This document shows, piece after piece, positions 63 to 58,660 of a stretch of 64,000 nt of DNA. Both the position numbers and the translations under genes were made by a program. The notes beneath the pieces were generated by a model. That model saw only the letters and a program-made list of their open reading frames with translations, was not told the DNA's origin and made no database searches. Positions within the stretch are counted from its first letter, which is position 1, and each line of letters opens with the position of its first letter. Where the stretch lies: contig OX597841.1 in assembly GCA_951406725.2 (NCBI GenBank), positions 18,352,001-18,416,000 of the forward strand, in the 5' to 3' direction. Source of the DNA: Octopus vulgaris (Eukaryota).

Positions 63-295
63 GGGCCTATGGCGTAGTAGTTAAGAACGTGGGCTTCTAA
101 CCCCCAAGATTCCGAGTTCAATGCCAGGCAGTGACCTTAATAATAATAATAACATCAAAAAATACCTTAGGAATGAGAACCCAGGTTCGAAATTTCCCTA
201 AGACACCTGATGAAGGCTGGAGGGTACATCGGCCGGAACGTTGTGTTGACAACCAACAAGAGGACAAATATCCGTCAAATGTAAATAATGTATAA
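63..295 (+). mobile_element. tRNA-headed (Pol III) non-autonomous retroelement with a hammerhead ribozyme in its 3' half
   Basis: A-box-like tggcgtagtagt (68-79) and B-box-like gagttcaatgcc (113-124), then a (taa)n spacer and a hammerhead motif at 202-247. The 3' part recurs as an inverted pair at 16736-16987. Confidence 0.7.
202..247 (+). ncRNA. minimal type I hammerhead ribozyme, one core mutation (GAAAC>GGAAC)
   Basis: gacac-CTGATGA-a-ggctgg(agggtaca)tcggcc-GGAACGTT-gtgtt. Stem I gacac/gtgtt, stem II ggctgg/tcggcc. Confidence 0.7.
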
Positions 296-1090
296 TGACT
301 TTGATCGGATCTGCTGGATCATGGTCAATGTGTGTTTAACCAACAAGAAACTATGTGTTTCCCAATGTAAGATCAGACAGAATTTGCTGATGTCAGCAAA
401 AGTCAAATCAAATTTTGGCACAAGTCAGCGACTGATAGGGCAAGAGTGCACGGTTGAGTGAATCCATTACTGTAGAACACTGGTAACTATTTTAGTGAGA
501 TCTCTGCCCTTCCAGCAAGATAAAAGTAATATTGACCAGCACCAACTTTTGAACTCAAAACATAGCAAATACATAGATATAAGTGACAGAGGCAGGTATT
601 AATACTGAGAGATAATATTTATCCCCACTTAAACACCGGATGTTCTGTTAGAACAAACTATACTGTGGTAGATGCCATGAGAGAACCTCTCCCATATTGG
701 CTTTTGGTGCAAAGTACACACTTGTTTATATCGCTAGTAGGGAGAAAAATCCCTGCCACCTCCAACGCCGAGACCACCAGATCATGTGATTTCAACCTTC
801 CTTGGTCTGCAAAAATATGAGTGGTCATGGGGAAGTATTATCTTGCTTGAAAATAGGTGAGGGTTGGCAACTGAATGAGCATCCAGCTGTAAAATATCTC
901 TGCCTTGATAAATTCAATAAGCGTGAGAACGTGGACATTGGAAGTGATGATGATGATATCTTTCAACTGAGAGTTGGAAGTGGAAAAAAAAAAATTGGAT
1001 TCTGAGCAGATAGACCTTTCAAAAGTCTGGGATCTGTACGAAAATTCATTTGACCCTTAAACATTTTTGCTACCATATTTCTGTTGAGAT

Positions 1091-1482
1091 ACTCTTTTAC
1101 TTGTTTCAGTCATTTGACTGCAGCCATGCTGGAGCACCGCCTTTAATTGAGCAACTCGACCCGGGACATATTCTTTTGTAAGCCCAGTACTTATTCTATT
1201 GGTCTCTTTTGCTGAACCGCTAAGTAATGGGGACATAAACACACCAGCATCGGTTGTCAAGCAATGCTAGGGGGACAAACACAGACACACAAACACACAC
1301 ACGCATATATATACATATATACAACAGGCTTCTTTCAGTTTCCGTCCACCAAATCCACTCACAAGGCTTTGGTCGACCTGAGGCTATAGTAGAAGACACT
1401 TGCCGAAGGTGCCACGCAGTGGGACTGAACCCGGAACCATGTGGTTGGTAAACAAGCTACTTACCACACAGCCACTCCTGCG
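1091..1482 (-). mobile_element. SINE family A (tRNA-derived, CORE-like, CR1-type tail)
   Basis: Near-full copy of the ~400-bp repeat seen >20 times. tRNA-like head ggcgcaggagtggctgtgtggtaag...ggttcagtccc, CORE-like ccttgggcaagtgtctt, internal microsatellite, (gtaaaaga)n tail. Confidence 0.9.
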
Positions 1483-2529
1483 TATTTCTTTCAATTAATT
1501 TTAAATATAACAAATAATTGAGTAAAACAACTTAGTTATCATTAAACTAGTGTTAGGAACATAAATTGTGGAAGATTTTAATTCAGAACTTTTGAAAACA
1601 AGACATTTGTACTACAGAGCCAGAGGTGGTTTCAGACAGGCTGATAGCAAAAGGGTTAAGCATTTAAACTGGCTATATCCAGGCCAAATATTTTACCTGT
1701 TTCATATTAAAAATGGCCAGATCTGGTCTCTCACACCTACCCCACCATGTCATTCTAAAATAAGTATTATTGAAATCTCAAAGCTACAAGATAATGCATG
1801 ATTAATTCAAAACAATAGGAATAAATAGGCATTGCTTTTGATGAAATAATCTGAATGCTAAGGGGTGAAATAAAAGAAATCCTTGACAGTGAAAAGGTTG
1901 AGAACCATTATTCTGTCATCGTCATCATCATCATTCAAAACTTATGAAAACAAGACATTTGTACTCAGAAGCCTGTCGTATATATGTATATATATATATG
2001 TGTGTGTGTGTGTGTGTGAGTGTTTGTCCCCCTAGCATTGCTTGACAACCGATGGTGGTGTGTGTTACGTCCCCGTCATTTAGCGGTTCAGCAAAAGAGA
2101 CCGATAGAATAAGTACTGGGCTTACAAAGAATAAGTCCCGGGGTCAATTTGCTTGACTAAAGTCTGTTGTCCATGCTGACATGGGTTGGATGGTGTGACC
2201 AGAGCTGGCAAGCTGGGGGGGGGGGGATTGCACCAGACTCCAGTCTGATCTGGTATGGTTTCTACAGCTGGATGCCCTTCCTAATGCCAACCACTCTACA
2301 ACATGTAGTGGGAACTTGTCTCATATCACCAGCACTAGTGAGATTGGTATTACAGCTTGCAAAGACTATAAACAGAAAAGGGGCAAATTTAAGCCAGGAG
2401 AAAAGAGTTCAAAGCAGGACGGGTATTTTGTTGTACAGGAACTACACGATTACTCACATTTAAGAGAGGGTAGCTATGATCAGGTGGAGGTAGAGAGCAA
2501 TCATATCCCAGCACTTGCCTCATTAAGAA

Positions 2530-2756
2530 GGCACATGGCTTGGAGGTTAGGGTGATGGACTCATGATTGTAAGATTGTGGTTTCCATTCCTGAACCAAGC
2601 AATGTGTTGTGTTCTTGAGCAAGACACTTCATTTCACGTTGCTCCAGTCCACTTAGCTGGTAAAACTGAATAATCCTGTGAGGGACTGGCATCTCATCCA
2701 GGTGGGGAATATAAACCGGAAAACTAGCCCTTACGACTGGAGAAGGTAGTTTTACT
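2530..2756 (+). mobile_element. SINE family B (tRNA head, body type 3)
   Basis: Head ggcacatggct..ggttaggg, core gttcttgagcaagacactt. Same body at ~3470-3656 and 39725-39977. Confidence 0.7.
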
Positions 2757-2879
2757 TTTTTTTTATTTTTACTCACCTCATTTCTAAAATAACACTATTA
2801 TTATTATTATCATTATTATCATCATTATCATCATCATCATCATCATCATCATTATTATTATTATTAATAATATTTGCTG

Positions 2880-3115
2880 GGTAGCAAATAATGATGGATC
2901 GAGATCCAGCTGAGGGTGGGGCACATAGCCATCTTTGCCTGATCTTCTTGCTAACTTTCAGCTGGTCTCCATTGCTGCCATTCATAGCATCCTTGTGTAG
3001 CGTCCACTCAGCCCATTTCACAATGTCCATGTCCAGGTTTCACTGCCATATACTAGCACTGATTCGACGGTTGTAATGAACAGCTTGATCTGGATTTGTC
3101 TGGGCAATACCTGCC
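2880..3115 (-). pseudogene. decayed RTE-type LINE ORF fragment
   Basis: Minus strand reads ..KLFITTVESVLVYGSETW.., the post-RT YGSETW motif of RTE-like LINEs. Confidence 0.65.
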
Positions 3116-57227: not shown

Positions 57228-57533
57228 ACAGGTGCACAGACGTTTTTGTCTGTGTCTATTATTTGTTGTGTCATTGACTTCACTAGAAATCTCTCCTATT
57301 CTTTCTTCCTTTGGTCTGGTATAATCTCTGAATTCTTTTTGGATATTTGTTTTGGTTCTGCTCTTTCCAGTGGTTTGCCCTTCTATTTCCAGTGAAAAGC
57401 AGAAAAATAGAAAGAGCAGTAGCAAAACAAATATCCAAAGAGAATTCAGAGATAATACCAGACTAAAGGAAGAAAGAATAGGAGAGATTTCTAGTGAAGT
57501 CAATGACACAGACAAAAACGTTTGTGCACCTGT
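57228..57533. repeat. inverted repeat (~125-140-bp arms) abutting (TA)n
   Basis: acaggtgcac..ctgctctttc versus gaaagagcag..gtgcacctgt. Confidence 0.85.
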
Positions 57534-57534
57534 A

Positions 57535-57962
57535 CTATATATATATATATGTGTGTAAATATATATGTATATATATATATATATATATATATATATATAT
57601 ATATATATATATATATATATATATATATATATATATGTGTGTATATATATATATATATATATGTATATATATATATATATATATATAATATATATATATA
57701 TATATATATATATATGTGTGTGTGTGTGTGTGTATATATGTATATATATGTGTGTGTATATGTATATATATATATATATATATATATATATATATATATA
57801 TATATATATATATATATATATATATATATATATATATATATATATATATATATATATATATATATATATATATATATATATATATATATATATATATATA
57901 TATATATATATATATATATATATATATATATATATATATATATATATATATATATACATATA
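57535..57962. repeat. long (TA)n microsatellite
   Basis: Direct inspection. Confidence 0.97.
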
Positions 57963-58046
57963 TAAACACATAATGGAGTAAACATAAATGTGAAACAAGG
58001 TGGAAAAAGAGTACTCAAATACCAGTGGTAGAGTAATATGCAAAAA

Positions 58047-58084
58047 CTGTCCGACGAACGGCAACGTGAAACTCAGAGTAACAG
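58047..58084 (+). ncRNA. minimal hammerhead ribozyme with U4C core variant
   Basis: ctgt-CCGACGA-acg(gcaa)cgt-GAAAC-tcaga-GTA^acag. Stems I and II are perfect, with a GNRA loop. Confidence 0.75.
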
Positions 58085-58290
58085 GTTTTGTTGAATTTTC
58101 TGCTGCTTTAAATAAAGTATATATACATATACATATATATACATATACATATATATACATATATATATATATATATATATATATAATGAAATAAATAAAC
58201 CAAAGCTGTGTATTCAGCATTACCTGACACCATTACTCTTATACATATATATGTATGTGTGTGTGTATATATATATATATATATATATAT

Positions 58291-58660
58291 AATATTATTA
58301 GAGACAAAACCACTATTTTGCAAAACAAACAAGGAAAGACTTAATCAATACATAAAATTTTAATAAATAGTCAAAAAAACCGCCACTACAATTGTTTCTT
58401 GTCTTGACTTCATAATTTGAAACTGACTTATTGGAAGTCCACCTGAAGATTGTCGATCAAGACAAGAAACAATTGTAGTGGCGGTTTTTTTGACTATTTA
58501 TTAAAATTTTATGTATTGATTAAGTCTTTCCTTGTTTGTTTTGCAAAATAGTGGTTTTGTCTCTAATAATATTTTATAATATTTTACTATAAAATTGGAT
58601 TTAAACCTAAATCTGATTTTTTTCCCTGTAAATTTGGATTTATTCCCTAATATTTATTAT
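58291..58660. mobile_element. head-to-head inverted hammerhead element in (TA)n
   Basis: 58291-58407 is the reverse complement of ~58457-58573. An exact fragment of the family also lies at ~33550-33622. Confidence 0.88.
58439..58481 (+). ncRNA. minimal type I hammerhead ribozyme (canonical)
   Basis: ccac-CTGAAGA-ttgtc(gatcaa)gacaa-GAAAC-aatt-GTA^gtgg. Confidence 0.9.

Follow-up and report, generated by a model that had tools for sequence, protein, structure and literature searches.

Minimal type I hammerhead ribozymes are known from two kinds of retroelement, namely the pseudo-long terminal repeats (pLTRs) of Penelope-like elements (PLEs) (PMC4209133) and the retrozymes that lack long terminal repeats (non-LTR retrozymes), whose PLE origin is likewise covered in print (PMC7229834; bioRxiv 10.64898/2026.07.22.740005). 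Published numbers vary widely, with more than 6000 hammerheads in 16 families in a coral and 126,247 in the axolotl (PMC7229834), about 38,500 in S. mansoni (PMC2770079) and 235 Rfam hammerhead matches in the giant squid (PMC6962438), whereas the accessible part of an octopus repeat annotation lists 31 recently active Penelope-like families and does not mention ribozymes (PMC13282606). As to function, insertion in vitro proceeded without cleavage by the hammerhead (PMC11167929), and one of nine retrozyme dimers was cleaved (bioRxiv 10.64898/2026.07.22.740005). Here we describe a 64,000-nucleotide stretch of the Octopus vulgaris genome (GCA_951406725.2, contig OX597841.1, positions 18,352,001 to 18,416,000, forward strand), hereafter the window, in which ten families of hammerhead-bearing repeats (A to J) very probably have the end structure of PLEs and are copied by PLE reverse transcriptase (RT)/GIY-YIG proteins from uncut or recircularised RNA.

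Motifs were searched with a type I hammerhead descriptor allowing one optional bulged base before stem II, relaxed once after a stricter version without that base, since replaced, had returned a single match in the window. Seven intact-core hammerheads were detected in the window, against a mean of 0.01 (maximum 1) in 100 block-wise dinucleotide shuffles, and the reversed window yielded none with the bulge-tolerant descriptor. Permitting a U3-A8 core raised the number to eight by adding the motif at 49700; for this variant the control consisted of two shuffles of a genomic sample (0 and 0), the window shuffles referring to the earlier descriptor only. That sample comprised 40 unselected 10-kb tiles (400 kb) at round-number positions of the 2.8-Gb genome, in which 21 intact motifs fell in 11 tiles, seven of them in one array, and none was found after reversal. 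The original prediction had listed 14 hammerhead sites in at least nine unrelated families. A hammerhead or a decayed copy is present at all 14, of which eight are intact and five are damaged (GGAA at 202; GAAA lost at 16892; a CCAAAGA core at 26802; stem I broken at 28421; AAAA and a broken stem I at 51991), and the site at 58047 has a U4C core with a stem II of merely 2–3 bp. The families number ten and share no BLAST similarity; "unrelated" is nevertheless too strong, because 49700 groups with canonical hammerheads that are homologous to one another. The expectation that such elements escape searches for open reading frames (ORFs) also held, and Rfam misses them as well. The Rfam hammerhead models gave no match at gathering thresholds in the window or in 11 loci and none at E ≤ 5 around 49700, and the best 150 of 289 rows of the window scan were mostly microsatellite look-alikes, in a window rich in microsatellites, with no hammerhead among them; 24 window ORFs produced no meaningful Pfam match.

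Family majorities were derived from 6–32 aligned copies per family, the family loci being best matches; every search scored 40 candidates, of which at least 39 were further matches to the family. Nine of the ten majorities satisfy the hammerhead descriptor; that of family I, which has a very weak stem II, does not. Core position 4 is C in the majorities of B and I, and their canonical CUGA copies may have arisen by CpG decay instead of being ancestral. The predicted lack of a stable stem III was seen in eight of nine folded families (hairpin impossible or at +2.4 to +6.0 kcal/mol), family E being marginal at -0.2, and the palindromes pair well as dimers (-6 to -17.5 kcal/mol, with ACGU at -1.7 as the exception), in keeping with a dimer-type architecture. 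A near-palindrome does replace stem III: when none was required, 20 of 22 matches in 464 kb (seven of the 22 from one array) had a perfect one, versus 0 of 3 shuffle matches. Stem covariation, a sign of selection on structure, is present in the clade of hammerheads resembling family F, where 15 of 21 pairs have changed on both sides among six related canonical hammerheads including 49700, a level reached by 0 of 500 shuffles. Because these six were chosen by the descriptor, the independent part of this result is the outer helix, which the descriptor does not demand and in which 5 of 7 pairs covary. In family H, two of the five stem I pairs covary with 100% pairing retained. The single units of E and F are strongly folded (z of -6.3 and -9.3, respectively). 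That cores and palindromes are conserved across families would imply selection on dimer cleavage in the source elements. The likeness to pLTR hammerheads (PMC4209133) extends to the type I fold, the short stem I, a base bulged ahead of stem II, a palindrome where stem III would be and the U3-A8 variant, and also to a genome with numerous families, most copies being solo, and to opposite-strand pairs 100–700 bp apart; the octopus motifs differ in stem II regions that reach 50–94 nt, versus 7–8 bp there, in palindromes as long as 12 nt and in the U4C majorities of B and I. Loose descriptors, with 3–5 false matches per 400 kb once one core mismatch is tolerated, are what speaks for chance matching, an explanation of negligible probability that is refuted by the intact-core counts against their shuffles, by the palindromes obtained unasked and by the covariation.

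Families A, E, F and J each possess two fixed 3' ends downstream of the cut site, about 30, 100, 60 and 73 nt apart, respectively (relative to the cut, A +51–61/+82–92; E 126–131/232–235; F 176–179/230–245; J 101–106/177–178). Among 39 classifiable head-to-head pairs, 37 combine a short with a long end, two are short plus short and none is long plus long (binomial P about 1e-9, calculated by hand); these remain from 46 rows after seven were dropped, comprising five of family E (four arising from an internal palindrome), one of J with an unclassified end and one of B whose classes were guessed. In J, an inverted arm reaches the short site in 30 of 40 loci and a second long arm was observed in none. 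All four families display an inverted, 5'-truncated arm with a tail at one end, which argues for mobilisation by PLEs. The same features are reported for the Anolis PLE PAc (Poseidon), with two internal RT start sites downstream of the hammerhead, inverted truncated copies and dispensable cleavage (PMC11167929), and the PLE tail is likewise confined to one end (PMC8557442). In contrast to these systems, the octopus features occur in non-autonomous RNAs, the rule of one short and one long end has been counted, and the tails are longer than the 30–40 bp described, at about 60 nt in F, 73 nt in J and 100 nt in E. A PLE protein would bind the RNA downstream of the hammerhead, nick both target strands and start complementary DNA (cDNA) internally, at a different site for each strand. 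Such a two-site start would produce head-to-head arms, one short and one long, and where the cDNA stopped early a 5'-truncated relic would remain, subject to neutral decay.

The cut site leaves no mark on where insertions end. Among 61 incidental copies, 49 span it, 11 start downstream and one starts within 6 nt, so that an origin of the copies from ribozyme-cut RNA, as implied by the original description of the elements as ribozyme-processed, is not supported, and the templates were therefore probably uncut, or circular in the tandem families. That version, in which all families are cut by their own hammerheads into monomers or circles serving as transposition templates, appears unlikely. It draws on the tandem and highly folded nature of E and F, on copies exceeding one unit that run through the cut site, which a circular template would permit, and on the circular RNAs demonstrated for coral, mussel and axolotl retrozymes (PMC7229834). 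However, the A, I and J monomers retain at least 65–140 nt upstream of the cut site, which cut RNA lacks, and fixed 5' ends lie about 113 nt (I) and 65–74 nt (J) upstream of it, in 10 of 10 selected I copies and 14 of 15 J matches (15 rows being genuine and the remainder (TA)n matches). Moreover, units within an array differ about as much as units between loci (3–5 versus 0–11 substitutions in E, 9 versus 6–9 in F, from very few arrays), so that nothing points to a single circle copied by rolling, a comparison that does not separate circular from multimeric templates. Contigs of four presumed RNA runs cover the E unit; strand, ends and circularity are unreadable in them, and the head-to-tail joint is also found in DNA.

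Under copying from uncut or recircularised RNA, cutting is predicted only where the palindrome joins two copies of the same sense, as in transcripts of tandem E or F, which would be cut into monomers and possibly circularised. In monomers of A, I and J, the hammerhead probably stays silent or needs help from a protein, and its main role may be as part of a structure recognised by the protein. In the window, all intact same-family pairs lie on opposite strands, and no single window transcript would therefore hold two complete same-sense copies close together; in family E the complete copy is preceded by a 3' half at 48231–48265.

Unit structure places E (484 nt) and F (364 nt) among the non-LTR retrozymes, with head-to-tail, non-coding units each bearing one type I hammerhead. 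We also observed a seven-copy array of a 353–359 nt retrozyme at L011:2272–4548, with a canonical C3-G8 hammerhead and an inverted part, related to family F. Families E and F and the 359-nt array resemble published non-LTR retrozymes in their non-coding tandem units, single type I hammerhead, strong fold and coexistence with autonomous PLEs; they differ in that the PLE link is drawn here from end anatomy and there from co-occurrence or pLTR homology, and in their host, the accessible parts of those sources including no cephalopod (PMC7229834; bioRxiv 10.64898/2026.07.22.740005). The remaining families (A, B, C, D, G, H, I and J) occur as monomers or inverted pairs, not in tandem, in the sampled loci, with one triple A cluster listed on C30. 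Families E, F, I and J abut (TA)n, J copies are 98–100% identical, C, D and G have variable 5' ends, and G keeps the intact motif in one of 16 rows.

The association with PLEs put forward in the original prediction is borne out by the insertion ends and by coding sequence. The family H hammerhead at 52692 follows an endonuclease C-terminal remnant and is the tail of a coding PLE, so that not all of the elements belong to the predicted class of small non-coding ones. In locus L230, upstream of the same hammerhead type, a family H relative carries YRDD, thumb and GIY-YIG-like motifs in one frame, which aligns with a 759-aa relative at 30% identity across 445 aa, and relatives score weakly for GIY-YIG and RVT_1; none of the loci examined holds a full-length H copy. 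RT and, at the C terminus, a GIY-YIG domain upstream of the hammerhead thus appear to place H among the PLEs. An intact 784-aa ORF (RVT_1 E 3.5e-8, GIY-YIG E 3.8e-4; no match to solved structures) is flanked by two hammerhead pLTRs at a distance of 4.4 kb from each other, and this PLE recurs at L106, L107 and L109–L111, many copies having open 784-aa frames. Its inverted insertions at L107 and L108, with one short and one long end in (TA)n, constitute a positive control from the same genome. Judged from its reading frames, this PLE, although outside the ten families, shows that an enzyme source exists in the genome. In the family H-type protein no cysteines occur between GIY and YIG, and a CxxC precedes the conserved E, as in the Hydra clade, and the 784-aa ORF shares with Neptune and Nematis the linker CX4CxxC and a CxxC inside GIY-YIG (PMC8557442); the relative P0003 has a CxCX5C that is missing from the H linker. 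Clades were assigned by motif alone, without a tree. On the minus strand of locus L155, downstream of the A copies, a broken PLE RT remnant is followed by a B-like hammerhead relic. A GIY-YIG frame in locus L075 was considered for family D or A but comes from a third element that is inserted between the two. One could read every motif as a 5'-truncated relic of an autonomous PLE, with no non-autonomous lineages, as most solo motifs were read in PMC4209133. This holds for H and suits the variable 5' ends of C, D and G, but E and F repeat head-to-tail without an ORF, I and J have fixed 5' ends and A has a tRNA-like head of its own, and we regard this reading as distinctly improbable for the set as a whole.

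Family A combines a hammerhead with this tRNA-like head, in which RNA polymerase III (Pol III) A and B boxes lie 44–46 nt apart at the 5' end in 21 of 27 head copies, the hammerhead part following in 27 of 35 heads. Homology to a tRNA is putative (Rfam tRNA 13.4 bits, E 5; alignment to one tRNA P about 0.08), with no Rfam tRNA match on locus L149 and none by ARAGORN, and the lack of an internal TTTT in the window copy is consistent with Pol III transcription. Given the tRNA-like head together with the PLE-type ends, A is likely a short interspersed element (SINE) riding on Penelope. It may be among the octopus SINEs known as OK, OR1 and OR2. The A and B boxes, the 9-nt tandem repeat at one 3' end and the absence of (TA)n targeting are also what an ordinary tRNA SINE mobilised by long interspersed elements (LINEs) would present, the hammerhead-like segment being there by chance. 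Twin-priming by LINEs yields a single 3' end, whereas 15 of 17 A inverted pairs have both 3' ends outward, one short and one long, and A has no poly(A), which makes the LINE explanation improbable. That A is a true tRNA-headed SINE mobilised by PLE rather than LINE proteins, with tens of thousands of copies, and that PLE insertion follows a strict two-site rule, by which priming on the two target strands always uses two different fixed sites of an uncut RNA with a hammerhead, is taken together the slightly favoured view. The nearest counterpart, Schistosoma Sm-alpha/Sj-alpha, is likewise a tRNA-related Pol III element with a hammerhead in tens of thousands of copies; Sm-alpha, however, is often tandem and cut as multimers, with no mobilising partner named in the accessible text, whereas A is mostly monomeric or inverted, with a minimal hammerhead and PLE-type double ends (PMC2770079, PMC6765202).

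Several observations weigh against PLE mobilisation of all ten families. Within-family variation resembles neutral decay, as in G; the GIY-YIG Pfam scores lie under the curated cut-off; and the tie to a PLE ORF is limited to H and one relative of B type. For A, C, D, E, F, G, I and J, about 1 Mb of sampled loci contained no autonomous partner with sequence in common, with no genome-wide partner search made. Family A does not insert into (TA)n, and its short 3' end bears short tandem repeats, as in LINE-mobilised SINEs. The short and long classes behind the pair counts were set after the data were seen, at loci that were best matches. Finally, integration might simply fail for cDNAs that stop at a cleaved 5' end, and cleavage in vivo is thus possible.

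The tile sample extrapolates to about 147,000 intact motifs genome-wide (bootstrap 56,000–266,000), or 105,000 if the array is counted once, far above the 2,000–9,000 of PMC4209133, obtained with different descriptors. This density is high, though not unique among published genomes. The seven hammerhead copies of family A in 400 kb correspond to roughly 50,000. All sampled sequence contained 185 matches in 31 clusters, one of them likely false, and together with the tile counts these agree with the large radiation that had been proposed. A candidate family in locus L145 (99-nt span) lies within a common SINE and was rejected as a likely false match. The eight motifs in 64 kb are not clearly above genome density (P about 0.13), and the window is typical of the genome.

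Table. Hammerhead-bearing elements of the window, in window positions, and the autonomous PLE found elsewhere in the genome
Element	Position	Strand	Features
Family A, full copy	63–292	+	tRNA-like head with Pol III A/B boxes ~63–136, then (AAT)n; decayed minimal hammerhead 202–247 (N17 at 242), short 3' end
Family A, inverted pair	16731–17020	both	Minus arm: intact hammerhead 16782–16827, short 3' end; plus arm: decayed hammerhead 16892–16938, long 3' end
B-like copy	25415–25596	+	Second such copy, core deleted; absent from the original list
Extra hammerhead	26150–26211	+	One core mismatch, 10-nt palindrome, one homologue in locus L044; absent from the original list
Family B, 5'-truncated	26700–26842	-	Hammerhead 26802–26837, core decayed; family majority CCGAAGA, U4C
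Family C hammerhead	28421–28533	+	Stem II 83–90 nt; stem I broken here, intact in family majority
Family D, inverted pair	31228–31511	both	Hammerheads 31278–31358 (-) and 31384–31464 (+), both cores intact
Family E, 484-nt tandem retrozyme	47592–48985	both	Insertion in (TA)n, inverted, arms of 595 nt; hammerheads 47716–47822 (-) and 48651–48757 (+); arm ends at positions 131 and 235 of the unit
Family F, 364-nt tandem retrozyme	49466–49863	-	1.1 units in (TA)n; canonical-type hammerhead 49699–49740, U3-A8 core
Family G, old	51930–52225	+	Hammerhead ~51992–52077 decayed; family majority intact
Family H, 5'-truncated PLE 3' end	52228–52830	+	Endonuclease C-terminal remnant ~52232–52405; intact hammerhead 52691–52778 (+), then microsatellite
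Family I, ~150-nt monomer	57975–58118	+	Fixed ends, in (TA)n; hammerhead 58040–58091 with U4C core, stem II weak
Family J, very young 250-nt monomer	58285–58662		Plus arm 58409–58662, intact hammerhead 58439–58481; inverted short arm, core missing
Young autonomous PLE, Neptune-like	L108:2860–7298 (G000:C8, ~52.214–52.219 Mb)		Frames of 446 and 784 aa; U3-A8 hammerhead in both pLTRs

Besides these elements, two related fragments at 25971–26036 (-) and 53608–53678 (-) retain a hammerhead 3' half and an 8-nt palindrome, the 5' core being unrecognisable, and possibly represent a further decayed family; a short 3' fragment of family J lies at 33539–33617 (+). A long perfect inverted repeat at 53098–53207 is a microRNA look-alike by Rfam, with a related hairpin element in locus L229, and abundant SINE-like repeats unrelated to the hammerhead families are present in 8–10 copies each (e.g., 1057–1512, 4718–5126, 24623–25094 and 46709–47139).

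The kinds of element involved, PLE pLTR hammerheads and non-LTR retrozymes, are already known, and because the hammerhead–PLE link and retrozymes are published, the basic finding is an extension to another genome; the families themselves may already be catalogued in Repbase, Dfam or the repeat library behind PMC13282606. We found no published account of cephalopod hammerhead families or of a PLE-mobilised tRNA SINE in a literature represented mostly by titles and abstract openings, with few subscription papers. What would go beyond the print as found is the putative PLE-type SINE of family A and the apparent rule that inverted arms end at two different fixed sites.

SINEs usually pair with LINEs, and a Pol III SINE with PLE-type ends, if true, would be a new host–parasite pairing. 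The link between retrozymes and PLEs, formerly drawn from co-occurrence and pLTR homology, is displayed here directly by retrozymes with PLE insertion ends. Such elements may be labelled in repeat libraries as miniature inverted-repeat transposable elements (MITEs), unclassified SINEs or unknown. The young family J and an intact PLE ORF in one genome provide ready substrates for the question of what purpose the hammerhead serves in PLEs. If A is such a SINE and the strict two-site rule holds, the octopus genome would host an ecology of PLE parasites, comprising a SINE, monomers and tandem retrozymes, in which the hammerhead is partly a recognition structure.

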